From: Candidatus Bathyarchaeota archaeon
Lineage (GTDB): Archaea; Thermoproteota; Bathyarchaeia; 40CM-2-53-6; RBG-13-38-9
Direction of reading: 5' to 3'
Length of the DNA: 36,781 bases
Assembly (NCBI GenBank): GCA_026015225.1
Contig: JAOZGV010000127.1
Location: 1 to 36,781 of the forward strand
The notes under the pieces are model-generated. The model saw only the letters and a program-made list of their open reading frames with translations. It was not told the origin of the DNA and searched no databases. The position numbers were made by a program, and so were the translations under genes. Of this stretch, positions 2,525-20,207 are shown piece by piece. How positions within the stretch are numbered: position 1 is the stretch's first letter; each line of letters starts with the position of its first letter.

Positions 2525-3940
2525 CTATTCTTCTTCCCAATATCTTGTTTTTTTCCGATTAGTCCTGTACTTTAGTTTATCAGATAGTTCCTGAGCTAGA
2601 GGTGTGGGATATTCCCCAGTTAAACAACCTAAACACAGATCTTCTTTTGGCATACCAATAGCATCCACCAATCCATCAATTTTTTGATAGCCTAATGTAT
2701 CTGCATTAAACGATTTTCTTATCTCTTCTATTTTTTTATCGCAAGCTACTAGTTCATTATGAATTGCAATATCTATTCCATAAAAGCATGGGGAAATTAT
2801 TGGTGGACAGGTTACTCTAACATGCACTTCTTTAGCACCAGATTTTCTGACCATGCTAATAATATTTCTTAAAGTAGTACCACGAACGATGCTATCATCT
2901 ACTAATAGTACCCTCTTATCACTCAACACAGTTTTTAATGGATTTAATTTGATCCTTACTGCACCATCCCTCTCCTTTTGTCTCGGCATTATGAAAGTTC
3001 TTTGAACATATCGATTTTTAATTAGCCCCTCAGCTACAGGAATTCCACTTTCGTGAGATAGTCCCTCGGCTGCAGTTCTTGAAGTGTCCGGAACCGGTAT
3101 GATAATGTCTGCATCATTTTTGTATGTTTTTGCTAGATTTATACCGAGCTTGTACCTCACGCTGTAAACACTCCTCCCATCCAATATTGAGTCGGGTCTA
3201 CTGAAGTAAACATATTCAAACATGCAATGTGATCTTCTATTATAGGAGGCGTATCGCTTCCTCTGAACCCCATTTTCATCAGCTATCGCCATTTCTCCGG
3301 GTTGGATATCTCTGGATAGATTTATATGATTAATATCCAGAGCTATACTTTCAGATGAAAAAGCAACAATACCTTCAGCCTCTCCTTCACAAAGTGGTCT
3401 AAAACCGTATGGATCTCTTATAGCGATAACTTTTCCATCATTAGTTAACAAAGCTAATGAAAAAGCTCCTTCTAGCTTTTCAACGGAATTCTTAATTGCT
3501 TCGAATATATCCCCTGTCTGTTCTTTTTCCCTCATCAACAAAGATAAAATTATTTCAGAATCATTTCGGGTCCTGAGCTTGATCCCATCTTTTTTTAATT
3601 GATTCCTCAGTATCATATTATTAACTAAATTACCATTATGCGCAATTGATAATGTCTTTTTAGATATTGGCTGCGCATCCACAAGCGTAGATCTACCAGC
3701 CGTTGAGTATCTGACATGCCCAATCCCTATTTTACTGTTAAACTTCTTCATTTTTTCGAGGATTTTTTCATTAACTAACCCATAGGCTTTAATGGTTTTA
3801 ATTTGTGATCTACGACATAATGATATACCTGCTGATTCTTGACCACGATGATGCAAAGCCATTAATCCAAGATATATGTCATAGACGACATTCTTATTGT
3901 TGTAATCATATATTCCGAATACTCCACAACTTTCTCGCAT
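2525..3940 (-). CDS. purF: Amidophosphoribosyltransferase
   Basis: 471-aa ORF with an N-terminal nucleophile context (MRESCGVFGI). It has the PRTase loop VLLVDDSIVRGTT and C-terminal Cys residues typical of the Fe-S type PurF. Confidence 0.93.
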   Translation of the reverse strand: MRESCGVFGIYDYNNKNVVYDIYLGLMALHHRGQESAGISLCRRSQIKTIKAYGLVNEKILEKMKKFNSKIGIGHVRYSTAGRSTLVDAQPISKKTLSIAHNGNLVNNMILRNQLKKDGIKLRTRNDSEIILSLLMREKEQTGDIFEAIKNSVEKLEGAFSLALLTNDGKVIAIRDPYGFRPLCEGEAEGIVAFSSESIALDINHINLSRDIQPGEMAIADENGVQRKRYASYNRRSHCMFEYVYFSRPDSILDGRSVYSVRYKLGINLAKTYKNDADIIIPVPDTSRTAAEGLSHESGIPVAEGLIKNRYVQRTFIMPRQKERDGAVRIKLNPLKTVLSDKRVLLVDDSIVRGTTLRNIISMVRKSGAKEVHVRVTCPPIISPCFYGIDIAIHNELVACDKKIEEIRKSFNADTLGYQKIDGLVDAIGMPKEDLCLGCLTGEYPTPLAQELSDKLKYRTNRKKTRYWEEE

Positions 3941-3964
3941 TAAATTTTTACCTCAGGCGAAAAT

Positions 3965-6160
3965 CTAATTTATGTACTTTTGAATTCCATTTTTCCAACA
4001 TTTTCTCATCTTTTTTATTTCACAATTTGCTATAGTCTCTTTTCCAATTGAGAATTTTATTGTTCCTTCATCATTAGTTTTCCCAATTAATGATACTGAA
4101 GCGTTATTATCCTTACATATTTTCAAAATCTTACCTACGTCTTCTATTCTTGAGGAAACTATAAACCTGCCATGGGATTCTGAAAATAGTAATTCGTATG
4201 GATTCATGCTCGTCTTAGGAATCTTTTTTATATCTACGATTGCTCCGAATCCACCATTAATTGCCATTTTTGCTAATGCTATTGCCAAACCCCCTTTTGA
4301 ACAGTCATGCGAAGCTGTTATGTAACCTTTTCTAATGGAGGATAAGACAGCATTCATAGAAGCTTTTTCTCTATCGTGTTTAGCGTTGGCTACTTTCCCA
4401 CCTATTCCATTAAAGCGAATACTAAATTGACTGCCTCCAATCTCATTATATGTCTTTCCGATAATAATGATTGCTTGATTACTTTCCTTTAAGCCTAGTG
4501 TCGTTATATGATTTAAATCGTCTATTAAACCGAGTGCGGCTATAACTATAGTTGGCTTAACAGCGGTACTAGTTCTTTCATCTTCATTATAAAAACTTAC
4601 ATTTCCTCCGATGCAGGGAATATCCAACCCATTTAACATATAAGATAGCCCATCTATAGATCTTTTAAATTGCCAGAATACTTCTGGATTCTCAGGGTTC
4701 CCAAAATTGCAACAATCAGCTATTGCAATTGGCTCTGCGCCTGTAACAACGATATTTCTAATTGATTCTGCCACAGCCCCAGCATGACCATAATAAGGAT
4801 CGAGATAAGTATGAAAGCTATTACAATCAGTTTTCATTGCTATTGCTTTATTTTTCCCTAAAATCCTAAGAACCGCGGCATCAGCTTCTCCAGGCCTTAT
4901 AACAGTTCTGATTCCGACTTCATGATCGTACTGCTGGTAGATATATTGTTTGCTTGCTATTGTGGGCATCATCAATAATTCATAAATAGCTTGAGAAAGA
5001 TTCTTTGGTTTTTGTTTTAATTCAAATTTTTTAGGAAATTTTTTCAAATAGTTAGGTTTTCTACTTTTTCTTCTAATTGGAGGCACTTCGGTTAAAATTT
5101 TAGGGGGGAGAGAAGCAATTATTTGCTTATCCTTTTTAACAACAACTTTTTTAGTATTTGTGACCTTACCAATTATTGAGTATTTAATTTCCCATTTATC
5201 GAAAATCTTTAGTATTTTATTTAATCCTTCAGGCTTTATAACAAATAACATTCTTTCTTGAGATTCAGAAATCATTAATTCAAAAGGAGCCATATCAGCT
5301 TCCCTTATATGTATTTTATCAATATTTATTTCTGCACCGACTCCCCCTTTGTCGGACATTTCCGAAAGAGCACATGTCAATCCCCCTCCGCCGAGATCCT
5401 TAAGACCTCTGACATATCTCGTAGAAAGTGCCTCTAGAGTGGCTTCAATGACAATTTTCTTCATAAATGGATCTCCAACTTGTACGGAAGGTCTGTCTTC
5501 TTCTGATCTTTCATCTATGGTTTTTGATGCAAAAGTAACGCCATGTATACCATCTCTACCAGTTGATCCCCCCAATAGAACCAAAATATCTCCGGGATTC
5601 TCCATTTTGCCAAGGACGATATTTTCCTTTTTTCCAATACCAGAGCAAGCTACATTAACAAGACAGTTTCTTTCGAAACTAGGATCGAATTCAATCTCGC
5701 CTGCTACAGTAGGTATACCACAACAATTACCATAATCTGCTATTCCCCTAATTACATTCTGAAATAACCATCTGTTATGACCTTTTTCTAGTTTACCGAA
5801 TCTCAAAGAATCTAAAAGAGCTATGGGTCTGCAATTCGTACACAGGATATCCCTTATAATTCCGCCAATACCTGTTGCGGCTCCATTATATGGATCGATC
5901 GCTGATGGGTGGTTATGACTTTCTATTTTGAAAGCTACAACATCTCCATCCCCGAGATCCACTATTCCCGAATCAAATCCAGGCCCAACAATTACCCTCC
6001 TTCCTTTAGTTGGAATTTTCTTTAACTCAAGTTTACTACTTTTATAGGAGCAATGTTCTGACCACATCACATCTATCATTCCAAGTTCAACAATGTTTGG
6101 TTCTCTACCTAGAAGTATTTTCACCTGATTAAGTTCATTGGAGGTGAGATTTATTTTCAA
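3965..6160 (-). CDS. purL: Phosphoribosylformylglycinamidine synthase subunit II (small PurL)
   Basis: 731-aa ORF with SEHCSYKSS and duplicated PurM-like domains. It is adjacent to purQ and purS, as in three-subunit FGAM synthases. Confidence 0.93.
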
Positions 6161-6189
6161 TTCGTTTATCGTTGGCAGATTTTTCCCCT

Positions 6190-6882
6190 CTATTTTTTAG
6201 AGTATTCAATCATGGATTCAAAGATCATCAATCCATCATTGCTACACTGGGGGCTAATAGCAGATTCTGAAGCTCTTTCTGGATGCGGCATGAGACCGAC
6301 TACATTTCTTTCAAGATTGCATATTCCAGCGATATTCTCCATTGAACCATTTGGATTGAAATCATCTGTGGAATTGCAAACATACTTGAATATTATCTGT
6401 TCATTTTCATAAAGTTCTTTAATTCCATGTTTTTCGTTTACATATCTTCCTTCTGAATGAGCTACTGGCATCCGTAGAATCTTATCTTTTTGAATTAATG
6501 TAGTGGCAGAAGACTTGTTAGAACTAACTTGGAGTGTAACCCATTTACAAACAAAAGTTAAGCAATCATTCATTAGAAGGGCGCCTGGCAATATTCCAGA
6601 TTCTACTAATATTTGAAAACCATTGCAAATACCTAATACAGCCTTACCCTCATTGACCATTTCCTTTAGTTCTCTCATCGCTGGACTTTGGGCTGCAATC
6701 GCTCCTGCGCGAAGATAATCACCATATGAAAAACCTCCAGGAAGAATGGCAAAATCATAATTGTTATGTCTGAAATATCGATGCCAAACTAAATCGGCTT
6801 TTATTCCGAGTTGTTTATTTAATACATATAGTACATCATAATCGCAGTTAGAACCAGGAAATTGAATGACTGCGGCCCTCAT
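6190..6882 (-). CDS. purQ: Phosphoribosylformylglycinamidine synthase glutaminase subunit
   Basis: 230-aa class I GATase with FPGSNCDYD, catalytic GICNGFQ and a C-terminal MPHPE. Confidence 0.92.
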
Positions 6883-7145
6883 TCTATATTACCTTTAGCC
6901 ACAATTTTGCACGAATGGACTACAGGATTATATATCCTAAGATCATTGCACATTTTATATACAATTTTTTCTGCATCATTTTTAGATTGAGCATTTACAT
7001 TAAGACGCAAATATTTTCCTGATCTAACACTCAGAATCTCATCATATCCGCTTTTGTTAATTAACTCTCTGTAAATTGTCTCACCTTCTGGATCTTTTGC
7101 TAATTTTTTATTTTCAATGATTACCTCGACAAGATAATTCGGCAT
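6879..7145 (-). CDS. purS: FGAM synthase subunit PurS
   Basis: 88-aa ORF whose stop overlaps the purQ start by 4 nt. Size and position are typical of PurS. Confidence 0.85.
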   Translation of the reverse strand: MPNYLVEVIIENKKLAKDPEGETIYRELINKSGYDEILSVRSGKYLRLNVNAQSKNDAEKIVYKMCNDLRIYNPVVHSCKIVAKGNIE

Positions 7146-7511: not shown

Positions 7512-9110
7512 ATGGCAAATATTATTGTTAGTCCAGATAATAAGATTGCTAAACTCAAAGAAGGCAAGACTCTTCTCTCTTATTTGCAGGAGCTTGAGAC
7601 AAATATACATGCTCGCTGTGGCGGACGGGGCACTTGTAAAGGATGCATTGTAAAAGTTAGTGCTAATAAAAATTTGAGTTCATTAACTGAGATAGAAAAA
7701 AAAGCTATTCAAAGAAAAGGATTTAGACTTGCTTGCCAAGCGAAGATAACTAAGGAAGATGAGGATATATTTATAGAAATTCCATTATATACGAAATTCA
7801 AAATTCTAGAAAGAGGAAAGGTAAAAAGAATACCTCTTAATCCGTTTATTAAAAAAATGCCCACTTCCTTAGGTGAGAGAATCTTCTGGGAGAAAAGAGA
7901 GATTGGGGCTTATGATGGTGAGATTTATGGATTGGCTTTAGATATCGGAACTACGACCCTCTCTATGGTTTGGATAGATTTAGAGAAAGGCAATGAACTT
8001 TTTGTTTCGTCGATGCTTAATCCTCAGTTTAGATATGGCGATAATATCATCGATAGGATAAATTATGCAAAGATCGGTAGACAAAAGCATCTTGAGAGGG
8101 CAATAAGGGAAGGAGTGAATGAAATGATTAAAGAGGTGCCTTTGGATAGCGAAAAAATCTATGAATTGGTTATAGTCGGGAATACAGCAATGAGAGATAT
8201 ATTTGTTGGCAACTCAGTTGAAAAGCTCGGGGAATCGCCTTTTGAACCAATTACTCTAAAACCAGTAAATAAAATTGCTAATGAATTGAATTTAGTACTC
8301 AATCCAAAAGCTAATGTTTATGCATTTCCATTAATTGGTCATTTTGTAGGCGCTGATGCTTTAGGAGCAATCCTAGCAACTGAAATTCATACGAAAACTG
8401 AAATTTCAATGATGATAGACATTGGAACTAATACTGAGATCGCTTTAGGAAATAAAGACGGCATAGTTGTAACTTCTTGTGCTTCTGGACCAGCATTTGA
8501 GGGATCAGGTATAAAGTGTGGAATTGGAGCGGTTGAAGGAGCAATACAAATGATAGATATAACGGAAAATTTAGAGATTAATTATAATACCATCAATAAT
8601 GCTCCACCAATTGGAATATGTGGTTCAGGATTGATAGATATTCTTGCAAATATGCTCGAGAGAAAAATAATAGACTGGACTGGGAAGTTCATAAAAGATA
8701 ATAAAAAATTTGTTATTTCTGAAAAGAATAAAATATTCCTTGATGGTGAAGATATCGACAATTTAAAACTTGCTAAAGCAGCAATATCGGTTGGAGCAAA
8801 GTTTGTATCAAGAGATCTAAATATCGAAATCGATGATATAAAGAAATTATATTTAGCTGGGGCTTTTGGAACATACATAAACCGTGAGAATGCTTTAAAG
8901 ATCGGCTTGTTGCCAAATATTCCACTGGAAAGAATTGAAAAAGTAGGAAATGCTGCTATGGAGGGGGCAAGACAGGCGCTTATATCCAAAGAGAAAAGAA
9001 GAGAAGCTGAAGAGATTCCAAAAAAAATAAGACATATCAGACTAGAGATGGAGAAAGATTTTCATGATAGATTTGTTGAAGAACTGTGCTTTGAAAAATA
9101 CAGACCATAA
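7512..9110 (+). CDS. Corrinoid reductive activase, RACo/COG3894-like (N-terminal plant-type 2Fe-2S ferredoxin domain plus ASKHA ATPase domain)
   Basis: 532-aa ORF. The N-terminus carries CGGRGTCKGC...LACQ (a 2Fe-2S Cys pattern). ASKHA phosphate motifs follow (ALDIGTTT, MIDIGTNTE, GSGLID). It sits next to corrinoid and CODH/ACS genes. Confidence 0.8.
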   Translation: MANIIVSPDNKIAKLKEGKTLLSYLQELETNIHARCGGRGTCKGCIVKVSANKNLSSLTEIEKKAIQRKGFRLACQAKITKEDEDIFIEIPLYTKFKILERGKVKRIPLNPFIKKMPTSLGERIFWEKREIGAYDGEIYGLALDIGTTTLSMVWIDLEKGNELFVSSMLNPQFRYGDNIIDRINYAKIGRQKHLERAIREGVNEMIKEVPLDSEKIYELVIVGNTAMRDIFVGNSVEKLGESPFEPITLKPVNKIANELNLVLNPKANVYAFPLIGHFVGADALGAILATEIHTKTEISMMIDIGTNTEIALGNKDGIVVTSCASGPAFEGSGIKCGIGAVEGAIQMIDITENLEINYNTINNAPPIGICGSGLIDILANMLERKIIDWTGKFIKDNKKFVISEKNKIFLDGEDIDNLKLAKAAISVGAKFVSRDLNIEIDDIKKLYLAGAFGTYINRENALKIGLLPNIPLERIEKVGNAAMEGARQALISKEKRREAEEIPKKIRHIRLEMEKDFHDRFVEELCFEKYRP

Positions 9111-9114
9111 TTTT

Positions 9115-10059
9115 CTAAATTTTACCTAATTTTAATCTGTCATTTATCTTAATGATTTTCCCTTCTTCAGTCAATTCCTTTATGTAAAGATTAAGAGCTT
9201 TGGTAGAATCACAAGCCTTTGCTGAATTATTCCAATTCCCTGGTCCATTGACAATTATTTCCTCTAATTTCTTAATTTTAATTTCTTTAGTATCTGAAAT
9301 TATTTTTAGAATGGCCTTTTTTGTGGTAATGAAACCACATGCTTCAAAAATAGCATCTTTTAGCAGATCGGCGGCCTCTTGCATTAAAGGACAGAGGGGG
9401 TCCATTTCTGCTTTACAACAGTTTCCTTCTCCTTCATTACTATGTTCATCATAGATCTTTTTAATGAGGGACTCTCTATTGCCGTAAGGAAAATTTATTA
9501 ATTTTTTACCTACACTATTTGCAGTACCGCCCGGGCTATCTCTTATTACTTTTACATCTTTTATTATTTTTTTATCTTTATCTAATTTTATCTCAAATTT
9601 CGGCCTGCCAAATTTTTTAGCAAATTCATTAATTAACTCATTATCACTCTGGTTTAGGGTACAGAATGGTTCAGGGAATTCTACATATATTCCTCTTTTT
9701 TCTAAATCATCCTGTACTGTTTTTTTGGCTTCGGGTGCCATTTTTCGATCATCTATAGGATATAAAACTGCTTTTACTCCAAGTCTTTCTGCTATTGGAG
9801 GAATTAGATCCCCTAGTTTTGAATGTATGCCCAATACTAGTAATAGATCGCATTTTTCTATCGGCAAATCTTTTGGGATATATTTCTCTGGTTCTTCCCA
9901 AATTTTTTCCCAGATGTTTTCTTGGTTATTGTGTTCGTCCTCTATAGTCTCGGGTTTGAGTTCATATAAATTGATTATATTATCTCCAAAGCCCTTCAGG
10001 GCAATATTATTTATCATCTGCTCTCCGAATGGTCCGCGATAAATTATGTATATTTTCAT
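9115..10059 (-). CDS. DUF166/COG1810-like protein, paralog A, with a C-terminal extension of about 75 aa
   Basis: 314-aa ORF, clearly paralogous to ORF 10761-11492. Shared blocks are LVLG..LIP, AVLYPIDD, FPEPFCTL, FAKKFGRP and VIRDSP. Its ATG overlaps the stop of the corrinoid gene (ATGA at 10056-10059). The family name is recalled from memory and is not verified. Confidence 0.65.
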   Translation of the reverse strand: MKIYIIYRGPFGEQMINNIALKGFGDNIINLYELKPETIEDEHNNQENIWEKIWEEPEKYIPKDLPIEKCDLLLVLGIHSKLGDLIPPIAERLGVKAVLYPIDDRKMAPEAKKTVQDDLEKRGIYVEFPEPFCTLNQSDNELINEFAKKFGRPKFEIKLDKDKKIIKDVKVIRDSPGGTANSVGKKLINFPYGNRESLIKKIYDEHSNEGEGNCCKAEMDPLCPLMQEAADLLKDAIFEACGFITTKKAILKIISDTKEIKIKKLEEIIVNGPGNWNNSAKACDSTKALNLYIKELTEEGKIIKINDRLKLGKI

Positions 10060-10736
10060 TTTTGCGCCTCAATGAATTTTTCGCATTTTCTTAATCCATC
10101 TATACTATCTTTGCCAAATGCATCAGCACCAATTTTCATTGCAAAGTCTTCGGTCAATGCTTTCCCACCAACTATCACTTTTACCTTTTCTCTCAAATTT
10201 TCCTTTTCTAGCTGATCAATTACTTCACCCATATGAGAGATGGTTGATGTTAAAAGCGCAGACATACCTAGAATGTTAGGGTTTTCTTCCTTTACCTTTT
10301 CAATAAATAATTCTTTTCCTACATCCACTCCTAAATCTGTAACTTTGAAACCATTAGATTCGAGTGTTATTGTAAATATCATCTTACCTATATCGTGAAC
10401 GTCACCTTTTACAGTTCCAATCACTACTGAACCTCTAGTTTTGATAGTTTTTTTGAAATATTTCTTTAGTATTTCGACTGCCTTTTTCATATTTTTTCCT
10501 GATACGATTAAGTCTGATGTAAAGTATCTCTGGAATTTTTGATCTTCGAAGCCTTTACCTATCTCGTCTAATCCTAAAGACAGTTCGTTGAAAATATCGT
10601 AAGGATCCATGCCTTGATCCAATTTATTTTGGCAATATTCTTTTATTTTATCCCCTTTGAAATCAAGTAGTACTTCTATGAGTCTTCTTATTTCATTTTT
10701 TTTGGACATTCTTTTAAGCACCAGGAAATTCGACAA
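10056..10736 (-). CDS. Cobalamin-binding corrinoid protein (B12-binding cap plus Rossmann domain; MtaC/MtbC-like architecture)
   Basis: 226-aa ORF with GDVHDIGK (DxHxxG), SALLTST and VGGKAL, preceded by a helical cap region. The track start is TTG at 10736. An in-frame ATG at 10709 (MSKKNE...), with GGTG about 10 nt upstream, is an equally plausible start. Confidence 0.85.
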   Translation of the reverse strand: MSNFLVLKRMSKKNEIRRLIEVLLDFKGDKIKEYCQNKLDQGMDPYDIFNELSLGLDEIGKGFEDQKFQRYFTSDLIVSGKNMKKAVEILKKYFKKTIKTRGSVVIGTVKGDVHDIGKMIFTITLESNGFKVTDLGVDVGKELFIEKVKEENPNILGMSALLTSTISHMGEVIDQLEKENLREKVKVIVGGKALTEDFAMKIGADAFGKDSIDGLRKCEKFIEAQK

Positions 10737-10760
10737 TTATTTGATGTTTTTCTTAAATTA

Positions 10761-11492
10761 TTATTTGACCTCAGATAAAGATTTGAGAATAATACCTTTT
10801 GTGATATAAGCAGCTAAATGGATTAATGATTTTCCTAATTCTGGATCTTTCATTCTAGAAGCCAGACAAGGGTATGTTTGAACAAAAAGGCTTGCTTTTG
10901 TTGGAGCCTCCAATATGCCAACGCCCAATAACTTTTCAGCAACAAAATGGGTCGCTCCACAAGGTGACCCTCTTATTACATCTATTTTCTCTATAATTCC
11001 GTTTTTTAATTTCATTCTTAACTCTGGTTTTCCTACTTTTTTTGCAAAATCATCTATCAATCTATTTTTTGAACCTATTTCCATAGAACAGAACGGTTTT
11101 GGAAATGCAAAAGCAACATCCATTTTTTCGAGTTCTTCAGAGATTTGCTTTTTAATTCCTGGTGGGACCCAATCAGAATTATCAATAGGAACTAGGGCTG
11201 CTTTCGCACCAGAAATCTTCACCAGATCTGGTATCAATGTCACTATAACCGGATTTTCACCTAATGAGAGAACCAAGTCGAATTTTGAAATGTCTTTAGG
11301 TAAAAGTTTCTTTGGTTCGTCAACAAAAATTGGTAGCCCTTGTTGAAATTCATACACATGAATTGCCCAATCTTCTGGAATTCTCTTCCTTATATTTGCT
11401 ATCATTCTATGGCCATACCAACCTTGAACTAGCGCGCAGATAGATATTTTCGATTTCTTTTCAAGTGTTGGTTTAGAAAAATTTGATTTCAT
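10761..11492 (-). CDS. DUF166/COG1810-like protein, paralog B
   Basis: 243-aa ORF with LVLSLG..LIPD, ALVPIDN, FPKPFCSM, FAKKVGKP, VIRGSPCGATHFVAEKL and YPCLASRM. These match my recollection of DUF166 consensus blocks. Confidence 0.65.
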   Translation of the reverse strand: MKSNFSKPTLEKKSKISICALVQGWYGHRMIANIRKRIPEDWAIHVYEFQQGLPIFVDEPKKLLPKDISKFDLVLSLGENPVIVTLIPDLVKISGAKAALVPIDNSDWVPPGIKKQISEELEKMDVAFAFPKPFCSMEIGSKNRLIDDFAKKVGKPELRMKLKNGIIEKIDVIRGSPCGATHFVAEKLLGVGILEAPTKASLFVQTYPCLASRMKDPELGKSLIHLAAYITKGIILKSLSEVK

Positions 11493-11568: not shown

Positions 11569-12345
11569 CTATCGATGCATCATTTTTAGATTTTCTTTAA
11601 GCCCTTCTATTGCTTTTACAGCAGGTGAGTTTGGTGAAAGATCTAAAGGTGCTATAGCCTGACTGTCGGCCTTGATTATGTTTTGGTCGAAGGGTATAGT
11701 ATGTATAAGTTCCAAACCAACCTCATTAAGTGATTTTTTTAGAAAATCTATATCCTCTTTTTGCATAATTTTATTTCCTACAGCCATCACTTTTTGTATG
11801 CCTATATCATTCGACAAATTCTTTATTTTCTTTGCAGTTTCTATCGACTGCGTCCCCGGTTCTACAACGCATAATAAAATATCAAATCCCTTTATCGTTG
11901 CTCGTCCTAAATGTTCTAAGCCCGCTTCCATATCCATAATGACCATATCTTTTCTTTCAAGTGTTATATGACGTATTAGAGCCCTGATCAACGAGTTGGC
12001 TGGACACATGCATCCAGAACCACCAGTTCGAATAGTTCCCATAATCAGAAGCATAACACCTTCAGGACCAACTATTCCAAAATTTTCGGTAATGTCGTTT
12101 ACAGTAGGAGCAATGTTATAGATTGGCCCTTTTCCAACTCTCCGCTCAATTAATTCTTTATTCTCAGCGATAGGTTTAACTTTAGATGATATATCTGAGG
12201 CAATCCCTAAAGCGTAAGAAAGATTCATCGCTGGATCAGCATCAATAGCAAGAACCTTGAAGCCGTCATTAGCAAATAAACGCGATAATGTCCCAGAAAT
12301 AAAGGTTTTTCCTACGCCGCCTTTCCCAGCAATAGCTATCTTCAT
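11569..12345 (-). CDS. cooC: CooC/AcsF-type Ni-insertion ATPase (MinD/ParA-like)
   Basis: 258-aa ORF with Walker A GKGGVGKT and a CxC Ni motif (GSGCMCPAN). It lies directly downstream of cdhE. Confidence 0.88.
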   Translation of the reverse strand: MKIAIAGKGGVGKTFISGTLSRLFANDGFKVLAIDADPAMNLSYALGIASDISSKVKPIAENKELIERRVGKGPIYNIAPTVNDITENFGIVGPEGVMLLIMGTIRTGGSGCMCPANSLIRALIRHITLERKDMVIMDMEAGLEHLGRATIKGFDILLCVVEPGTQSIETAKKIKNLSNDIGIQKVMAVGNKIMQKEDIDFLKKSLNEVGLELIHTIPFDQNIIKADSQAIAPLDLSPNSPAVKAIEGLKENLKMMHR

Positions 12346-12377: not shown

Positions 12378-13820
12378 CTATTTGGAGGCTATTTCTCCCA
12401 CTTTCCATTTCTCATTTAGGAATTTTATTATACCAGAGGAGTCCAATGGCCCTACCAAAACGTCCCATCCTGTCACTTCCTCAATCTCACCACTTAGTCT
12501 AGCAGCTCTTCCTGGAATTATTAATTTTTTATGCTTTACTTTTTTTTCAATTTCAAACTCCTTAATTGCTTCGCCTACTTTATCAGCAGTTAACTTTCGT
12601 CCTGCTACAGCACTTTCTACTGATAGACCTTCGGTATCGATCACAATCAAATAACAATCAATTTTTTCGATATCAGAAGCAACAGTGTAATACGTGAGAG
12701 CAAAGTTCGTCGTAAACAATACTGGGGAATTTTCATTTGGTTTCCCAATAACTTTCAACTCTGCATCTACTGCGACTGGTTTTCTTGGATCCGTATAAAG
12801 ATTTTCTCGTAAGATCACTAATGGTAATAGAACCCATCCATCGAGACTATGTAAAACAATAATATCAGAATATCGAGTTATTAACATTGAGGCCAAATAT
12901 GCCTCTTTCCACTTTACATCCTCTATAGATTTTGTATTTTCAAACCATACAACCATCGGATTTCCCATCAATGGAAAACCTAGAAGCTCATCATATTTTT
13001 TGCAGGACGCGCGTCTAAGCATCGTTAGATTATTTATATTCTTACCCAATCCTTCATTCGGGAAAGTTCCTGAATCAAGGACAATATCTTCAATACCATA
13101 TTCCAAAATTGTATTTGAAAGTGAGCGCAGAAGATCGAGATCATTTGGGGCAGATACAACAAGAGGGGAGTTGTAAGTTGATGCTAATTCGGTCATTTCT
13201 AACCAGTTATCCTTGGTTGCAGCATAAATTAAAGGCCTTTTACCTTCACTTGCTTTAAGTCCTGCCTTTACAACTTCGGGATTATGTGAACATAAAATCA
13301 ATGGAAGATTGGTATTTTTAATGACCTCTTTTACCGCGATTGAAAATTTTTCTGGAACACTAGAAGTTGATCTTACTGCGATTAAATCAAGTCGAAGATT
13401 TTGGCCTATATAATGATATTCAAAATTTTGGATTAGTTTAGATCTATTTCCTATCTCTTCTTTTGTCATCTCATCGGAAATGTCAATTGCAATAGCAGTT
13501 GGATTATAGTAAGTGAACTCATGACGGTACATAACAAACTCCCCACCGATAGTAACTGCATTTTCTCCTGTCCCAATGGTAACGCTTCTGACCGGGGGTT
13601 TGACCATATCCCAAATTTTTTGATAATTTTTTTTGTACTTGCCCTCTTCAAGCAGTGGTGTACAGCTTTCAAGAAGAATTTCTTGATTTACTAATTTTGT
13701 GGCAAAGGCCATACAGTTTTCTTCACCACACACCTTGCAATTTGTCCTTGGTAAAAGCTTGTAAACGTCTAAAGGACTTATTTCTTTTATACTGCTTTTT
13801 TTAGTTTCTCTCTCTGACAT
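12378..13820 (-). CDS. cdhE: Acetyl-CoA decarbonylase/synthase gamma subunit (large corrinoid Fe-S subunit)
   Basis: 480-aa ORF with an N-terminal 4Fe-4S motif (CKVCGEENCMAFA). Its position after cdhD and its length are typical. Confidence 0.9.
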   Translation of the reverse strand: MSERETKKSSIKEISPLDVYKLLPRTNCKVCGEENCMAFATKLVNQEILLESCTPLLEEGKYKKNYQKIWDMVKPPVRSVTIGTGENAVTIGGEFVMYRHEFTYYNPTAIAIDISDEMTKEEIGNRSKLIQNFEYHYIGQNLRLDLIAVRSTSSVPEKFSIAVKEVIKNTNLPLILCSHNPEVVKAGLKASEGKRPLIYAATKDNWLEMTELASTYNSPLVVSAPNDLDLLRSLSNTILEYGIEDIVLDSGTFPNEGLGKNINNLTMLRRASCKKYDELLGFPLMGNPMVVWFENTKSIEDVKWKEAYLASMLITRYSDIIVLHSLDGWVLLPLVILRENLYTDPRKPVAVDAELKVIGKPNENSPVLFTTNFALTYYTVASDIEKIDCYLIVIDTEGLSVESAVAGRKLTADKVGEAIKEFEIEKKVKHKKLIIPGRAARLSGEIEEVTGWDVLVGPLDSSGIIKFLNEKWKVGEIASK

Positions 13821-13830: not shown

Positions 13831-15036
13831 TCAAATTTTCATTTTAATCCATTCTGCATACTTTTCCGGTTTTGATATTTTTGATTTCATCAAATTACCA
13901 ATGACATCCTTTACAGTTCTTACTGCGCTCGGATGCATCATCATAAAATAGTCAACTCCTGCTAAAAGTAGAGTGAGTGCCGTAACTGTTTCCCAGATGG
14001 GACCTCGTTGCTCTCTAGTACCCCACTCTGGCTCCATTTTCATCCAAGCCTCTCTTGCCGCCCATGCATTCGTAGTTCCAGAGGACATTGGATTTTGCAA
14101 CTGATCATCACCCATTAATCCCGATATTCTAGTTCGCTCCATTACGGTAAAAGCGTAATCCAGTCCATATCCCAAGGCAGCCGTTGTTGTATCTATCACT
14201 ATCCTTTCTCTTGGCATAAATTCGAAAAGCTTGCGGTTGAGTTCCTTTGCATCATCTAGATTCATTGAAGTGAAAGCAATAACAATATGTCCATATTTGT
14301 TCATTAAATTTGCCATCTTTTCGATATCCATATCGAGTGTTACTGAATTGAACAGAAGTCTCTCTCCTTCTGAGACTTCAGCAACTTTCTCAAAAACTTT
14401 CATGTCCTTGGACGGATCACCACAACCACCAATAGCTATTGGAACATCTACAGCTTGAAGTACATTCTCTACTGTCTTAGCCGCTTCTTTTGGAGATGTA
14501 TCTTTTATAAGAGGATCAATACTGATGAGGTGTAAATTAACCATTTCAGCTCCAAATTTATCGACTGATAATTTTGCCCAAGCAGGTGGATCCTCCAAAA
14601 CCTCCTCAACTTGTGCTCTTACAGGCTTTGCTAGCGGTATCTTTGTGTCAAAAACATCAAAAGAGATGACGGGGGGATTTGGCATATTTGATTCAAAACT
14701 ATAGTAAGGTAGAGTTCTCTCTCCTCCAATAGTGAAAGTCTTAGATCGGCTACCTCCTTCACCCTTTGTAGCACCCAATATAACTTCTAAAACTTGCCCT
14801 GGATATTCCATTATTGGAGGTTCAAATTTCGTTTCAACAATCTGGGATGGTTTTGACTTCTTCTCAGTAGATTGGATAGCAACTGCTCCTGTACCAGGTT
14901 GTATCCAGAGTTCAAGTTCACCGATTTCTAACTCTACATCCTCTAATTCCAATTCTTGGAATTTCCCTAAAGTATCAATAAAATTGTTTTCTGAACCTAT
15001 CTTAAGCTGACCTTCTTCTCTTTTCTTTTCAGCCAA
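13831..15036 (-). CDS. cdhD: Acetyl-CoA decarbonylase/synthase delta subunit (small corrinoid subunit)
   Basis: 401-aa ORF lying between cdhC and cdhE. It has a CdhD-like TIM-barrel sequence character. Confidence 0.88.
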   Translation of the reverse strand: MAEKKREEGQLKIGSENNFIDTLGKFQELELEDVELEIGELELWIQPGTGAVAIQSTEKKSKPSQIVETKFEPPIMEYPGQVLEVILGATKGEGGSRSKTFTIGGERTLPYYSFESNMPNPPVISFDVFDTKIPLAKPVRAQVEEVLEDPPAWAKLSVDKFGAEMVNLHLISIDPLIKDTSPKEAAKTVENVLQAVDVPIAIGGCGDPSKDMKVFEKVAEVSEGERLLFNSVTLDMDIEKMANLMNKYGHIVIAFTSMNLDDAKELNRKLFEFMPRERIVIDTTTAALGYGLDYAFTVMERTRISGLMGDDQLQNPMSSGTTNAWAAREAWMKMEPEWGTREQRGPIWETVTALTLLLAGVDYFMMMHPSAVRTVKDVIGNLMKSKISKPEKYAEWIKMKI

Positions 15037-15047: not shown

Positions 15048-16427
15048 CTACTTCTTCTTTGGAGTACGAATAATAATCTTTTTTGCATGAATCTTCGCAT
15101 CTTTTAAAATAATCTTAAATCCACCACCGGCCACAGGCATACCCATGGCAGGAGAAGTTGTTTCTATTGAAATTTCTTCTTCGGGAACTTTTTCCTCAAA
15201 AGCCAACTCCTTCCAGCCTTCAACGACAGGATGATCCTTAGATTTTAGAAAATCTTTTAATTCATCTATTGAACTAACATCATCTTCAATTGCGATTTTA
15301 TCGATAATGTCTTTTGGAATATAATCAGCCAAACGTTCTTTCATAACTTTAGGCATCCATACTATCTTATTCCATCCACCATCTACTTGAAGAAGTTTTG
15401 GGGATCTCATATATTCAATTGAAAGGCCGTGGAATCCATCAATTTGTCTTCCTCCTGCCGTAGAGTCAGCCATAGTAGAAAATGGCAATGCATTCACTGT
15501 TTTTCCTTGGAAATCCCTATGAACTATTCCTAAGCCGTCAACCTCAGGAATATAAAAGGCTATTGCCTCGAAGCAACCGCATGAGGTGTGTGGATATCCA
15601 AAAGCTGAGTAGAGCCACACGCGATTGATTTCTCCTAATGATTTCTTTTTTGCATTATCATTTATACCGGAATATTCACCTTTAACAGGATCTATGCATT
15701 CACCTTTCTCTATCGTATATATTGGACCCTTTGGATCTATACGAGCGGCTGCTCTGCCATCGAACCAACTTATAGCACCACAATTTGCGTATCTTTGCGG
15801 GGTTATAGTGCATACGTGTGTTGGAGCAAAAGACTGACATAGATCACAACCATAGAATTCATTTACATCGTCGTCTATCAATTTCCTAGCTCTTGCATCT
15901 CTCGCCTCGTATATCTTCATAGCTTCTTTTGACATTTCTTCCACTTTCTTAGGATCTGTGATAAAGGTAACCTGCATTGATTCTATAAATGGCAACTCGC
16001 TTTTAAAAAGACGAAATAGTACTTCTCCAATTATCTTGAATGAATTCAAGCCTTTCTTATAGGATCTTTTTCCCAATCGCATCCATATATCATATCTTTG
16101 ATTGAGGTGCATAAATCCCTCAATATAATTGCCGTATTCATGGATTCGACGTTCTATTACGCCTTCAAGTTCTTCCTCTAGTTGTTTTCCCGCAGCTTCT
16201 ATTAAGATACCTATAGGAATGCTACTTCCTTCTTCGAATTCTGATATGTCTTTCCCAATGATCTTGATCTGCCCGTCTTTTACCTCATTAGGTTTTTTCA
16301 CTCTTACCAATTCAAACTTGTTCTCTACTTTTGGTCCCCCAAGTTCTATAAACAAATCTGATTTCCTAATTCTTTCTCCTTCATATACAATTCCTATGTC
16401 AACAGGTATATCTTCAAACATTGACAA
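15048..16427 (-). CDS. cdhC: Acetyl-CoA decarbonylase/synthase beta subunit (A-cluster, acetyl-CoA synthase)
   Basis: 459-aa ORF with the Cys-Gly-Cys A-cluster motif (HTSCGCFEA) and an upstream CDLCQSFAPTHVC. Confidence 0.92.
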   Translation of the reverse strand: MSMFEDIPVDIGIVYEGERIRKSDLFIELGGPKVENKFELVRVKKPNEVKDGQIKIIGKDISEFEEGSSIPIGILIEAAGKQLEEELEGVIERRIHEYGNYIEGFMHLNQRYDIWMRLGKRSYKKGLNSFKIIGEVLFRLFKSELPFIESMQVTFITDPKKVEEMSKEAMKIYEARDARARKLIDDDVNEFYGCDLCQSFAPTHVCTITPQRYANCGAISWFDGRAAARIDPKGPIYTIEKGECIDPVKGEYSGINDNAKKKSLGEINRVWLYSAFGYPHTSCGCFEAIAFYIPEVDGLGIVHRDFQGKTVNALPFSTMADSTAGGRQIDGFHGLSIEYMRSPKLLQVDGGWNKIVWMPKVMKERLADYIPKDIIDKIAIEDDVSSIDELKDFLKSKDHPVVEGWKELAFEEKVPEEEISIETTSPAMGMPVAGGGFKIILKDAKIHAKKIIIRTPKKK

Positions 16428-16428: not shown

Positions 16429-16968
16429 TTATTGGCCTCCCAATTTCAATATTAGCGCCTCAAAGAATTCTCTCAACTCTTTTGATGAAATATTTGGAAT
16501 GGACCATGTTGCATTAGGCTGGTAAAAACCATCTAAACTTATAGTCTGGAGATTTCCTGAGAAATTCTTTAATCCTGAGAGGATTAGCCATTCCATATAA
16601 TATGGTAACCCAATAAAAAAAGCTAGATCGTAGGTCCCTTTTCCATCTAATCCCTTCCATTCCGGATCAGTTAATCTATTCGCCACATCCATGACAGGCA
16701 TGGATGCAACTGATTGAAATTCTCTATTAAGAAATTCCTTTACAGAGTGGGCTGTTGCAACAATAGGAATTTCTCCAGCTTTTGCAATATCAATTACAAA
16801 GTCTATTAACTTTTTCCCATCCAAATCTATCTCAACAATTTTATGACCAACAACTAGAATTGGATGCTTTGATCTCTTCAACATGGCCAGTACTACTTCT
16901 GGTTTTACTAAAGGCAGGGCTCTCTTGGTTCCTGCAACTTCTGCTTTCTGCCAGGGCGCATCACTCAT
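16429..16968 (-). CDS. cdhB: Acetyl-CoA decarbonylase/synthase epsilon subunit
   Basis: 179-aa ORF with a 4-nt overlap with the cdhA stop. Size and position are typical of the archaeal epsilon subunit. Confidence 0.88.
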   Translation of the reverse strand: MSDAPWQKAEVAGTKRALPLVKPEVVLAMLKRSKHPILVVGHKIVEIDLDGKKLIDFVIDIAKAGEIPIVATAHSVKEFLNREFQSVASMPVMDVANRLTDPEWKGLDGKGTYDLAFFIGLPYYMEWLILSGLKNFSGNLQTISLDGFYQPNATWSIPNISSKELREFFEALILKLGGQ

Positions 16969-19319
16969 TTTTTATTTGCCTTCTTCCTAACCATTCTTGG
17001 TAAGAGAGTGGGATCTGGTATTATTCTTTCTTTCCAGCCTTTCTCATCAAGTATTCTTACAATCTCATCCTTCATAGTTATTGGAATATCTGATAGGCGT
17101 CTAACAAATAGATGAATATCATCAGGCATAGTACCGTAGAAACGTTTGTGAAGATCGATATAATGGGAGAGCTTGATCGCTCTTCCTTTTGTATTATCAT
17201 TTGGACGCATGCATAATTTTGCAATCATAACCATAGCTTCCTCTTTAGTTTCTGCAGCATAGAATAGATGCTCGGGTGCAGGGCCTCCATATACTCGTTC
17301 GCCAGTTCGCGAATCATAAACATACCAATCTTCTTTACGATCTTTTCTACCAAGTAGCATACGTCTATATTTTGAACCATGTGGGCCTACTATAACCGGT
17401 ATTCCCAATCGCCAAAATCCACTCGCTATTGATGCGGCCTTCTGAGACATAGCTCCCCAAGCAATGCCTACTGCACCGACTCTATTGTGAACGTAATCTG
17501 CGATCTCCTCATAATTTCCTCGAAGATTTCGCTTAGCAAAAATACTAGCAATTTTTATTGCAGCACCCGCTATATGAGGGTTGGATACACAGGAACCTAC
17601 ATTCACTAGTCCTCCTGCATCAAAATTTCCAGGATACTTTTCATAAGGCGATTTTCCATCTTCGTCCTTTACCATTCCCGCAGACATGGCAGCACAGCCG
17701 GATGTAACCACTATAAATCGTCTTTTTGCGAATTCCTCTATCATCTCTGCGACTTCTTCTCCACCCTTAGGATAATTAGCACATCCTACAAATGCGACAA
17801 CACCTGGTATCTCTCCGAAGATTATGGGTTGCCCTACTCTTCTTATCTCCACATCCTGAATTGCGCCTCTTCCTGCACGAATTTTATATTGCTCTTGTTT
17901 CATCTTCTTCTCCCCAGCCTTGACAATGAAGCTATGAATTGGGAATTCGTTAGGACAGACGTATTCGCAACGGCCACATCCTATACATTCTTCATAAATT
18001 TTTTCTAATTTAGTTAAATCGCCTTTTCCTGCACTTACCATGGCTTTAGGAATTTCTTGATCATTAGGACATGCCCTTCTGCATTCATTACACAAATTAC
18101 ATTTCTTCGCAATTTCAATGAGGTCTTTTATCTCTGGAATAATCTTGAACTTCTTTCTTTTTGGAGCAACTTCCATTGCAGTTCTTACTGCTACTTCCCC
18201 GACCTTTTCAGGATCAAGAATAAGCACGCCATCAACTTGACCGCTAACTAAGTCATTAACAATTTCGTCAACTGGGTCTTTTGTCCTATCCTCTAAACCA
18301 AGGCAATTTTTTGAACTAGATGCAATTAATGGTGCCTTTATCTTTTTTGCCTCTTCTAACGAGTCTGCACGAATACATTGCTCATCAACAACTAAAATAT
18401 CTGGGAGCCCACTCCTAATAAATCGGAGCTGCCATGATATAGGTCCAACAATTTTTGCTTTAGAGCTATATCTTGTAATATCATGCGCAGTACAGCATAA
18501 ACCACAAACGTCAATTTTTCCATATAATCCTTTTTCATTAAGATAGTCCATAATTCCAATAGCTGGGGGGACATTATGACCTACAACCATAATAGTGGGC
18601 TTTGTAGGATCGACTGCACCAAAACCAAGATCCACAAGAGGAGCGTTTGGGTCAGCTTTAGGAAAACCAAAACATGAGACTTGCGCCATATCAGCAATTT
18701 CCATCCCCACCTGGTCAACCATACCTGCTTGTAAAACCTTAGATTCAAAGTCTAAATTATTTCCTTCTTGACCCGTATGAGTTGCTGAAAGCAAATGGTT
18801 TATCTGGGTTTCTAAATAGTCTAGAATAGTATCCAAGTCACCCAGTGTCTTTGGTCTGATACCTGTCACTAATCTAGTAACAGGAGCTTCAACTTCAACA
18901 TTGGTGCCTCCTACATCTAAAGGATAATTTCTTCCAAATTTTTCTATTAACTCATCAACGAGATGTCTTGCATGAGCTGTATGGGTAGCAGCGCCTATAC
19001 ATGCAGCAAGAAGTACTATCCTTGATTGTTGAGCTTCCATATTTAGCCCACAAGCGCCTCTTTTATTATTACTCAAATCGCATTTGCCATAAGTACAGAG
19101 ACAACAAAGGTCGCAAAAAGGCATATAGAATGGTTTGTATTTTTGAAGTATTTTCATATCCCAATTTCTTAAATCAGTAATTGATGGGTAAGGTGTGGGG
19201 CCAATAGTTTCTTCCCAAGAGTCATCTATCACTTTTCCAACTGATAGTCTGAGATCTTTCATTATACCAAGATTTGACTTTAACTCTTTGATCTTCAAAT
19301 CCACATTCTTTCTAGTCAT
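16965..19319 (-). CDS. cdhA: Acetyl-CoA decarbonylase/synthase alpha subunit (Ni-CODH)
   Basis: 784-aa ORF with a Cys-rich N-terminus (CDLCCLCTYGKCDL). It carries an inserted pair of ferredoxin motifs, CNLCNECRRACPN and CIGCGRCEYVCPN, typical of archaeal CdhA. A strong SD-like GGTGGGGGG (complement of 19325-19333) lies just upstream of the ATG. Confidence 0.93.
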   Translation of the reverse strand: MTRKNVDLKIKELKSNLGIMKDLRLSVGKVIDDSWEETIGPTPYPSITDLRNWDMKILQKYKPFYMPFCDLCCLCTYGKCDLSNNKRGACGLNMEAQQSRIVLLAACIGAATHTAHARHLVDELIEKFGRNYPLDVGGTNVEVEAPVTRLVTGIRPKTLGDLDTILDYLETQINHLLSATHTGQEGNNLDFESKVLQAGMVDQVGMEIADMAQVSCFGFPKADPNAPLVDLGFGAVDPTKPTIMVVGHNVPPAIGIMDYLNEKGLYGKIDVCGLCCTAHDITRYSSKAKIVGPISWQLRFIRSGLPDILVVDEQCIRADSLEEAKKIKAPLIASSSKNCLGLEDRTKDPVDEIVNDLVSGQVDGVLILDPEKVGEVAVRTAMEVAPKRKKFKIIPEIKDLIEIAKKCNLCNECRRACPNDQEIPKAMVSAGKGDLTKLEKIYEECIGCGRCEYVCPNEFPIHSFIVKAGEKKMKQEQYKIRAGRGAIQDVEIRRVGQPIIFGEIPGVVAFVGCANYPKGGEEVAEMIEEFAKRRFIVVTSGCAAMSAGMVKDEDGKSPYEKYPGNFDAGGLVNVGSCVSNPHIAGAAIKIASIFAKRNLRGNYEEIADYVHNRVGAVGIAWGAMSQKAASIASGFWRLGIPVIVGPHGSKYRRMLLGRKDRKEDWYVYDSRTGERVYGGPAPEHLFYAAETKEEAMVMIAKLCMRPNDNTKGRAIKLSHYIDLHKRFYGTMPDDIHLFVRRLSDIPITMKDEIVRILDEKGWKERIIPDPTLLPRMVRKKANKK

Positions 19320-19466: not shown

Positions 19467-20207
19467 TCATAATATATTTTCCATAATGCTTTTAATGGAT
19501 AAATAAGCCGGCGATGTTTGTGGCAATTTTAGTAATGATTTGCCCTCAATAACGTAAGATTCAACATTCTCATCATAATTGATTTTTCCAAGATATTTCA
19601 TTCCCATATCTTCTGCTCTCTTGGTTAAGTTATCAGGAAAACGATTCCCCCCAATAAGAAATATTTCTTTGAATTTTATTTTAACTTCTTTAATTATTCG
19701 ATAAGCCCTCTTGAAATGTTCAAATGATTTTTTCGACGAATCTAATATATCTATAATATAATCAACGTCGGAGGTTATCCTTCTATTTAGGTGTTCTAAT
19801 CCAGCCGGGGAATCGATTAGAACGTATTTGTAATTGTTAGCTAGAGTCGGGATTACTTTCTTTAAAATGTTATTTGGCATGCAATAGCATCCTTCCTTCC
19901 ATTTAGCTCCGATGACTATTAAATCAAAGAGATCTCCTTCGAATATCTTTTCAAGTATCTTTGGCTCTAATCTTTCCAGTGGCGAGGCGCCTGTAACACT
20001 ACCGCCTTCATCCATGAATTCGTAGAGAACATCAGATATAGTCTTCTCTACATCTGCTCCGACTAGGTCACCTAAATTTTGATCTGGATCTGCATCTATC
20101 AAGAGTATTGGGGTTTCACCGATTTCAATAAAATATTTAGCCATCAATGCTACTGAGCTTGTTTTTCCTGTTCCGCCTCTTCCCATAACAACTATTTTTT
20201 TCATCAT
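19467..20207 (-). CDS. CooC/AcsF-like P-loop ATPase (second paralog)
   Basis: 246-aa ORF with Walker A GRGGTGKT and a CxC motif (GCYCMPN). It lies immediately upstream of cdhA on the same strand. Confidence 0.8.
   Translation of the reverse strand: MMKKIVVMGRGGTGKTSSVALMAKYFIEIGETPILLIDADPDQNLGDLVGADVEKTISDVLYEFMDEGGSVTGASPLERLEPKILEKIFEGDLFDLIVIGAKWKEGCYCMPNNILKKVIPTLANNYKYVLIDSPAGLEHLNRRITSDVDYIIDILDSSKKSFEHFKRAYRIIKEVKIKFKEIFLIGGNRFPDNLTKRAEDMGMKYLGKINYDENVESYVIEGKSLLKLPQTSPAYLSIKSIMENIL

Follow-up and report, generated by a model that had tools for sequence, protein, structure and literature searches.

A corrinoid protein, a DUF166 paralog, and a RACo-type activase form a conserved module beside archaeal CODH/ACS genes

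Carbon monoxide dehydrogenase/acetyl-CoA synthase (CODH/ACS) ranks with the best-studied and oldest of carbon-fixing machines, and its parts list is usually taken as closed. Proteins of the DUF166 family have no solved relative, yet they are embedded in cdh/acs clusters of both archaea and bacteria, and, in the sole organism tested, autotrophy requires one of their genes. Here we analyze a 36,781-nt stretch of DNA from Candidatus Bathyarchaeota archaeon (contig JAOZGV010000127.1, assembly GCA_026015225.1; hereafter, the window), in which a row of cdh genes ends in a small corrinoid protein of the MtaC type (CP; 10056..10709, minus strand) and the long-form DUF166 paralog DUF166-B (9115..10059, minus strand), which converge with a RACo-type activase (7512..9110, plus strand).

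One of the closest described systems is the corrinoid iron-sulfur protein (CFeSP), that is, AcsC/AcsD or CdhE/CdhD, together with its activase RACo. It and the locus studied here have in common a cobamide-binding Rossmann protein as the actual or putative methyl carrier for acetyl-CoA synthase, a [2Fe-2S]/ASKHA activase encoded alongside, and genes of the same operon. However, whereas the CFeSP large subunit is His-off, the CP is small, His-on, and MtaC-type with a helical cap. It also lacks a [4Fe-4S] domain and a TIM-barrel partner, its partner being a DUF166 protein, and the locus has its own complete CdhD and CdhE.

The methanogen methyltransferase systems (MtaBC, MtmBC, MtbBC, and MttBC with RamA) and the bacterial O-demethylases (MT1, CP, MT2, and activating enzyme) are similar in other respects. 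As in those systems, a cap-plus-Rossmann CP is translationally coupled to a partner gene and accompanied by an ATP-dependent reductive activase, and the closest Protein Data Bank (PDB) structures to the CP, 1y80, 4jgi, and 7xcn, point the same way. In contrast, no known MT1/MT2 family (MtaB, MttB, MtaA/UroD-like, or pterin-binding) was detected in the window or, in related loci, beside the CP and DUF166-B. DUF166 takes the place of the conserved partner, and the module is tied to cdh rather than to methylotrophy genes.

Two further systems bear comparison. In Methanococcus maripaludis a DUF166 gene lies beside a CooC paralog and the cdh genes, much as cooC in the window is directly followed by a second DUF166 gene, DUF166-A, but no extra CP, second DUF166, or RACo has been reported there. 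HgcAB offers an analogy only, as it also pairs an acetyl-CoA-pathway-related corrinoid protein with an adjacent, dedicated Cys-rich redox partner. HgcA differs from the CP in being CFeSP-like, Cys-on, and membrane-anchored, and HgcB is a standard 2[4Fe-4S] ferredoxin with no homology to DUF166.

A corrinoid protein, DUF166-B, and RACo form a separate, conserved module

On the minus strand, from 19319 to 9115, the gene order is cdhA, cdhB, cdhC, cdhD, cdhE, a gene for a CooC-type ATPase, DUF166-A, CP, and DUF166-B. A previous analysis made from the nucleotide sequence alone (hereafter, the sequence-only reading) had singled out the last three open reading frames (ORFs) of this row as an extra corrinoid protein between two DUF166-like paralogs, facing a RACo-type activase, and all of its ORF coordinates were borne out on the sequence. 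DUF166-A (10761..11492, minus strand; 243 aa) and DUF166-B (314 aa) matched PF02593 with E = 3e-55 (187.5 bits) and E = 5e-30 (105.1 bits), respectively, both above the gathering threshold of 24.4 bits, and they are indeed paralogs, sharing 36% identity over 191 aa (E = 1e-23). The middle ORF contains the anticipated B12-binding (E = 5e-23) and B12-binding_2 (E = 2e-9) domains as well as the GDVHDIGK, SALLTST, and VGG motifs; the Pfam matches forecast for all three ORFs, DUF166 on both flanks and the two B12 domains between them, were thus obtained. The 76-nt gap between cooC and DUF166-A was confirmed, as was the ATGA overlap (10059-10056) of the CP stop and DUF166-B start codons. The proposed 24-nt gap upstream of the CP and its length of 226 aa probably have to be revised, but not the cobalamin signature of the protein. 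The CP ORF extends to a TTG at 10736, and its close homologs are all 213 to 217 aa long. The most likely start codon of the CP is therefore the ATG at 10709, which gives a protein of 217 aa and a gap of 51 nt to DUF166-A.

In the CP, a helical cap at the N terminus (B12-binding_2) is joined to a Rossmann domain that carries the DxHxxG, SxL, and GG motifs. It matched NCBIfam TIGR02370 with E = 2e-49 and 167.7 bits, below the cut-off of 215.3, and also scored below the cut-offs of the named families MtbC (153.9 versus 350), MtgC (159.1 versus 370), and MtaC (113.9 versus 420). Judged by these profile scores, the CP is of the methyltransferase-cognate type and falls outside all named substrate-specific families. 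Among the ORFs of the window that we scanned, none matched a known MT1 or MT2 family, as the sequence-only reading had noted; the conserved neighbors of the CP are instead DUF166-B, RACo, and the cdh genes. Nor does the CP have the makeup of CdhE or AcsC, as it consists solely of the cap and a His-on Rossmann domain, with no N-terminal [4Fe-4S] domain and no TIM barrel. The CdhE of the window is full length and has its own Fe-S and corrinoid domains. Because CdhE is thus complete, the CP is truly an extra corrinoid protein. We also considered whether the invariant cysteines of the CP, C26 and C209 (counted from the ATG at 10709), mark its clade, and discarded this idea, since C209 is common to 1y80 and 4jgi and C26 to MtmC.

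The B form of DUF166 constitutes a compact, separate clade. At 90% identity it has at least 131 clusters, none of them less than 43% identical to the DUF166-B of the window. We examined the neighborhoods of 79 metagenome loci of this type, and the denominators that follow are the assessable loci. The CP lies directly upstream of DUF166-B in 55 of 58 loci, the ATGA overlap is found at the CP stop codon in 52 of 68, RACo is convergent and directly downstream of DUF166-B in 41 of 48, and cdh genes are present in 33 of 38. Likewise, at least 19 contigs are common to the top-120 lists of DUF166-B and CP homologs. The arrangement recurs in dozens of independent contigs, so that a chance origin is ruled far out. 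Synteny of the CP with DUF166-B, RACo, and cdh, on which the sequence-only reading had staked its case, is therefore strongly conserved.

The same census separates the two DUF166 genes. In a Methanomicrobiales metagenome-assembled genome (MAG; L089) and in L091 and L092, cdhABCDE is followed by CP-B with a convergent RACo and no adjacent A copy. The CP-B-RACo module is also present in a Hadarchaeales MAG and one further contig, and in one more contig two cooC genes flank CP-B, convergent on cdh. The full A-CP-B trio was found in only ∼10 contigs, with B copies at least ∼59% identical to that of the window; where an organism is given, the contig belongs to a Bathyarchaeia MAG or to a "Nitrososphaeria archaeon" record. 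Because A occurs without a CP and CP-B occurs without an adjacent A, the "DUF166 pair" is not one unit. The proposal that the pair is the partner of the corrinoid protein thus holds for DUF166-B, which is tied to the CP, and not for DUF166-A. The trio of the window is two juxtaposed units, one of cooC and DUF166-A, a general CODH/ACS accessory set, and the other of CP, DUF166-B, and RACo, a module of its own that has been conserved in Bathyarchaeia, Methanomicrobiales, and Hadarchaeales.

The slot upstream of the CP is variable and is filled by DUF166-A, by cdhE, or, in one Hadarchaeales locus and metagenome loci akin to it, by a conserved Cys-containing ORF of ∼190 to 220 aa, termed ORF X (L093:8401-8973 and L094:8343-8996, 54% identical; also in L118, L137, L139, L141, L142, and L146). 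The ORF X family had no match in Pfam, NCBIfam, or the PDB, and the idea that ORF X of L093 and L094 is a divergent DUF166 was rejected (hhalign probability of 0.3%). In four loci (L106, L107, L110, and L134), the order is cooC-DUF166-A-DUF166-B with no corrinoid gene in between; downstream of A-B in the first three, there is no RACo and the genes are an unrelated topoisomerase IB, M48 peptidase, and peroxiredoxin.

The activase of the window contains Fer2 (E = 7.5e-9), Raco_middle (E = 1.6e-44), and RACo_C_ter (E = 1.2e-78) domains, and its best PDB match is 3zyy, the RACo of Carboxydothermus hydrogenoformans (E = 2e-86). It scored below the equivalog cut-offs of AcsV (342.7 bits versus 800) and RamA (166.4 versus 500), which classes it, on profile evidence, as RACo-type and not as the curated bacterial AcsV. 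Its convergent orientation, with 4 nt between its stop codon and that of DUF166-B, was as previously described. The three DUF166-B loci without a CP (cooC-A-B) are also without RACo, and no RACo was seen on the stretches examined of bathyarchaeial cdh-cooC-cooC-DUF166 loci. Hence, RACo is missing where the CP is missing, and it follows the CP rather than cdh, which fits the earlier suggestion that the activase serves the extra corrinoid. On its other side, RACo is flanked by a purine-biosynthesis block (purS, purQ, purL, purF, and purM-like; 1412-7145) that is syntenic with L001, making RACo the last gene of the CODH/ACS neighborhood on that side.

We found no paper in the searchable literature on a DUF166-paired corrinoid protein, on the CP/DUF166-B/RACo module, or on RACo in archaeal cdh operons. 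The module thus appears to be undescribed, as the sequence-only reading had supposed, and what appears new about it is the combination of a CP and its activase with a novel partner family, DUF166-B. Overall, that reading, hedged as it was, proved largely right. As to function, a dedicated Co(II) reductase would otherwise make little sense, which suggests that the CP is a methyl carrier that turns over. It is possible, and we put it forward tentatively, that the CP is a second methyl-carrying corrinoid activated by RACo and that DUF166-B is a putative Fe-S relay, the two together resembling a split CFeSP.

DUF166 in other loci of the acetyl-CoA pathway

We surveyed A-type DUF166 proteins, using A-type sequences only as queries (the B clade was sampled separately, in the metagenomes) and one genome per species; this gave 268 relatives, of which the best 80 loci were kept and annotated by phmmer with the window proteins and bacterial Wood-Ljungdahl proteins as queries. 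On the stretches examined, genes of cdh, acs, or the C1 pathway lie near DUF166 in 48 of the 80 loci, and many of the others are on short contigs. In Bathyarchaeia, Geothermarchaeales, Baldrarchaeota, and Odinarchaeota, a single DUF166 follows cdhE and/or adjoins one or two cooC genes; in Armatimonadota, Hebobacteria, and Bacillota, a single DUF166 follows acsE; in Chloroflexota, it lies between fhs and the bacterial CODH; and Clostridia-like contigs have the order fhs-DUF166-fchA. In most loci acsCDE or cdhDE adjoins DUF166. DUF166-A of the window clusters with the DUF166 proteins of other cdh/acs clusters, and the extra corrinoid protein is missing from most A-type loci with such clusters.

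The statement that DUF166 has no experimentally established function needs qualification, since genetic data exist in a preprint (bioRxiv 10.1101/2024.03.05.583561). The M. maripaludis DUF166 gene MMP_RS05055 forms an operon with cooC2 (MMP_RS05060) beside the cdh operon and is cofit with every cdh gene (r = 0.94-0.99); its clean deletion abolished CO2 fixation and was complemented in trans, and the authors suggest merely "an accessory role" (bioRxiv 10.1101/2024.03.05.583561). The general link between DUF166 and CODH/ACS is thus already published, on genetic grounds.

Other neighbors of DUF166 were also seen. In six Dehalococcoidia/Chloroflexota loci (L015, L017, L022, L028, L038, and L046), DUF166 overlaps a gene for a B12-binding radical SAM protein, making this the third kind of B12 protein tied to DUF166. 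The radical SAM gene, encoding 482 aa, is downstream of DUF166 (e.g., L028:753-4347), and in L022, L028, and L038, the three for which the stretch upstream was covered, a gene for an ADP-forming acetyl-CoA synthetase precedes DUF166. In a single Methanobacteriaceae locus (L071:233-2013), DUF166 is directly followed by CbiF/CobM, the cobalt-precorrin-4 methyltransferase (358 bits versus a cut-off of 260). In some Bathyarchaeia, DUF166 lies away from cdh and is followed by a 246-aa Flavoprotein (PF02441) plus Fer4 protein (L076:9833-11405 and L079:9854-11402).

These neighborhoods bear on the alternative that DUF166 proteins are maturation or cofactor factors, which would load or process corrinoid or deliver metal for CdhE/AcsC, the CP, and B12-radical-SAM enzymes; DUF166-B would then be a dedicated chaperone of the CP and DUF166-A one of CODH/ACS. 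In M. maripaludis, the operon that DUF166 forms with cooC2, its cofitness with that gene (r = 0.94-0.99), and the loss of CO2 fixation in the DUF166 knockout (bioRxiv 10.1101/2024.03.05.583561) speak for such a role, as do the frequent adjacency of CooC to A-type DUF166, the three unrelated classes of B12 protein next to DUF166, with cbiF in one locus, and the coexistence of DUF166 with RACo in bacteria, where the two would not be redundant. The Rossmann-like N-terminal half of DUF166, with its conserved loop (see below), is also compatible with it. However, RACo tracks the CP, which implies a CP that turns over catalytically and is not a cofactor store; stoichiometric translational coupling is uncommon for a chaperone; the fusion of DUF166 to a ferredoxin domain is left unexplained; and DUF166 is unlike the known cobalamin and nickel chaperones (CblC/D, CobW, HypA/B, and CooJ/T). 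We consider a maturation role unlikely.

Fold and conserved cysteines of DUF166 and the role of the module

The DUF166 family is small: a search of 1.84 billion representatives (E ≤ 0.001) gave 526 clusters at 50% identity. As the sequence-only reading had anticipated, neither flanking ORF matched a characterized enzyme family: Pfam gave DUF166 only, and neither sequence (phmmer) nor profile searches of all PDB chains returned a relative. AlphaFold2 models of DUF166-A and DUF166-B were confident, with pLDDT values of 91.6 and 91.7, respectively, and Foldseek searches with them against the PDB gave nothing below E = 5e-3, with a best TM-score of 0.34. In these models, the only likeness to PDB folds is a generic Rossmann-like N-terminal half, in which a G-x-[YF]-G loop is conserved. 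DUF166-B has in addition a predicted C-terminal winged-helix-like domain (H-beta-H...H-beta-beta) with the invariant C283.

The winged-helix-like C terminus of DUF166-B and a weak DprA_WH match in a related protein raise the question of whether the CP and DUF166-B are regulatory, a B12 sensor and its winged-helix partner controlling cdh by the corrinoid or redox state. Indeed, the cap-plus-Rossmann architecture is also that of CarH-type sensors, to which the CP has a weak match (E = 3e-4). But the match of the CP to methyltransferase corrinoid proteins surpasses that to CarH by ∼45 orders of magnitude, a sensor would not be expected to have a dedicated ATP-dependent Co(II) reductase, and short DUF166 forms without the winged helix retain the Cys site. 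A regulatory function is therefore highly improbable.

The most conspicuous feature of the family is this set of cysteines. In 101 full-length representatives, C135 is found in 101, C178 in 101, and C209 in 100, whereas H225 is found in 86, the residue otherwise being Q, N, D, R, Y, or V; a CCCH pattern is thus present in 86 of 101. DUF166-A itself carries all four residues, and the motifs of the triad are FPxPFC, SPCG, and YPC. In the B clade, the counterparts C133 and C215 are both invariant, and C177, C241, and C283 are found in 76%, 91%, and 115 of 116 sequences, respectively. C177 is lost in 28 of the 116 B-clade sequences, and 25 of these 28 have a Cys at position 223, compared to 2 of the 88 that retain C177 (Fisher p = 7e-20, kinship of the sequences ignored). 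Such a swap from C177 to C223 is as expected of a set of ligands, as far as the alignment can tell. The DUF166-B of the window, which keeps C133, C215, C223, and C241 and has a G at position 177, is of the G177/C223 kind and hence not a degenerate copy. We had considered that it might be an inactive one, given that it lacks the SPCG Cys, and rejected this, as position 177 is a Cys in 76% of the clade and C223 compensates.

Some DUF166 proteins have selenocysteine (Sec). NCBIfam DfsP comprises Sec-containing DUF166 members, the original selenoprotein survey entered DUF166 as COG1810 (PMC1976440), and DUF166 is among the selenoprotein families in two selenoprotein reviews. The representatives in our collection that are truncated at a conserved Cys, which we sought as Sec candidates, proved to be contig ends or frameshifts. 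Fusions are also found. DUF166 is fused to a full CooS-type CODH in P0348 and P0423 (878 and 897 aa; two contigs of a Bacillota-like cluster) and to a C-terminal ferredoxin-type 4Fe-4S domain in P0301. An unknown N-terminal domain of 120 to 155 aa is present on DUF166 in P0280 and P0282 (P0280 is from Thermoplasmata, with 17 cluster members), and P0305 has a weak receiver-like N-terminal domain.

Three DUF166 homologs are named "thymidylate synthase" by JGI, a name that presumably stems from the old annotation of Methanocaldococcus jannaschii MJ0757. Neither ThyA nor ThyX was found in sequence, profile, or fold searches of the PDB, and we discarded thymidylate synthase as an identity for DUF166.

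Three invariant cysteines and a variable fourth residue (H, Q, N, or D) are also reminiscent of the Zn sites of MetH, MtaA, and MtaB, and DUF166-B might be a new corrinoid-dependent methyltransferase, with Zn held by three Cys and a fourth ligand that can be exchanged. It would put the methyl group on the CP or take it off. CdhD/CdhC, or else the product of the variable gene upstream (DUF166-A or ORF X), would perform the other half-reaction, and the module would serve as a methylotrophic side path into or out of acetyl-CoA synthase. The layout of a CP with a coupled partner and an ATP-dependent activase is that of MtaBC/RamA and of the bacterial O-demethylases, and the CP is nearest to the acetogen/O-demethylase corrinoid proteins 1y80 and 4jgi. 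In addition, the slot upstream of the CP varies (DUF166-A, ORF X, or cdhE), as MT1 components do, and the thymidylate synthase name given to some members at JGI is that of a C1 transferase. Against this, the same residues are present in the single-copy DUF166 of H2/CO2 growers, where the protein is essential without an extra methyl donor, and AcsE already adjoins DUF166 in bacterial clusters. Furthermore, the fusions to ferredoxin and CODH suggest redox chemistry instead, no methyltransferase is known to use Sec as a Zn ligand, and Foldseek found no likeness of DUF166 to any MT1 or MT2 fold in the PDB. Taken together, we regard a methyltransferase function as somewhat unlikely.

The split CFeSP that we tentatively favor would work as follows. 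The CP, base-off/His-on, would carry methyl groups alongside CdhDE by cycling between Co(I) and CH3-Co(III), and RACo would re-reduce Co(II) to Co(I) at the expense of ATP. DUF166-B, presumably made in a 1:1 ratio with the CP by virtue of the ATGA overlap, would dock on the CP and provide what the CP is without, a metal center, most likely Fe-S, held by the invariant Cys set. The CP and DUF166-B would then be a two-subunit analog of CFeSP. By extension, DUF166 proteins might be thiolate-metal redox partners that service the corrinoid cobalt centers of the acetyl-CoA pathway, a notion for which the ferredoxin and CODH fusions, the Flavoprotein plus Fer4 neighbor, and the Sec-containing members provide redox hints. 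The corrinoid-related neighbors of DUF166 (the B12-binding radical SAM gene, CbiF, and acsCDE or cdhDE) and the M. maripaludis deletion also speak for this reading. The genes, their paralogy, synteny, and coupling, the conserved residues, the fusions, and the lack of a known fold are observations; the complex itself, the nature of its metal center, the electron relay, and the course of methyl flow, both its direction and its partners, are what we infer from them.

Several observations weigh against the split CFeSP. Three Cys with an exchangeable fourth ligand would make an equally good Zn site of the kind found in thiol or methyl transferases. The Cys swap may reflect one single event, as the statistic ignores phylogeny. 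In bacteria RACo occurs together with DUF166, and a [4Fe-4S] cluster is already part of CdhE itself; for these reasons, an electron relay by DUF166 in general is not obviously needed. The frequent position of A-type DUF166 beside CooC also fits maturation of the nickel cluster. Moreover, the CP and DUF166-B occur without RACo on the stretches examined of L090, L114, L122, L129, and L140.

Still, the module may account for corrinoid activation or supply in archaea without known activators, and it may reveal that methyl groups enter acetyl-CoA synthesis by an unrecognized way, a matter of consequence for the carbon cycle of sediments. The CP also provides a biochemical handle on DUF166, as a 1:1 partner with a spectroscopically visible cobalt center. 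In its boldest form, the reading would make DUF166 a new thiolate-metal class and the missing universal factor by which corrinoid cobalt centers of the acetyl-CoA pathway become or stay competent, and DUF166-B, CP, and RACo of Bathyarchaeia, Methanomicrobiales, and Hadarchaeales a CdhDE-independent second route by which methyl groups reach or leave acetyl-CoA synthase. We hold this to be doubtful; if true, such a route would permit methylotrophic acetyl-CoA synthesis without tetrahydromethanopterin.

The cdh genes and other features of the window

All cdh genes are on the minus strand. The product of cdhA (CODH alpha; 16965..19319) contains Pfam Prismane and Fer4 domains and matches the PF03063 genes of syntenic loci. 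The gene for the epsilon subunit, cdhB (16429..16968), was assigned by its operon position and by phmmer matches to the PF02552 (CO_dh) genes of L001, L003, and others, and cdhC (15048..16427), encoding the A-cluster subunit acetyl-CoA synthase, by phmmer matches to the PF03598 CdhC genes of syntenic loci. CdhD, the delta subunit of the corrinoid Fe-S component (13831..15036), matched Pfam CdhD with E = 9e-63 and TIGR00381 with 455.7 bits, above the cut-off. CdhE, the gamma subunit with corrinoid and [4Fe-4S] domains (12378..13820), matched Pfam FeS and CdhD and, over residues 12 to 473, PRK04165 (601.5 bits). It is followed by the CooC-type Ni-insertion ATPase (11569..12345, minus strand; Pfam CbiA, AAA_31, and ParA), whose position is kept in L001 and L014.

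A tRNA scan detected no tRNA in the window, and promoter and terminator scans, which used bacterial models on this archaeal DNA, gave scores no better than those of shuffled sequence. Directly upstream of cdhA, a gene for a RimK-like ATP-grasp protein and one for a second CooC-like ATPase (19467..20207, minus strand; Pfam AAA_31 and CbiA) occupy positions 19467-21244; both also precede cdhA in L001, where the position of the ATPase gene is kept. Farther away (25329-26690), three small redox genes lie in a row and encode a Rieske [2Fe-2S] protein, FeThRed_B (the catalytic chain of ferredoxin:thioredoxin reductase), and, overlapping, a second Rieske protein.

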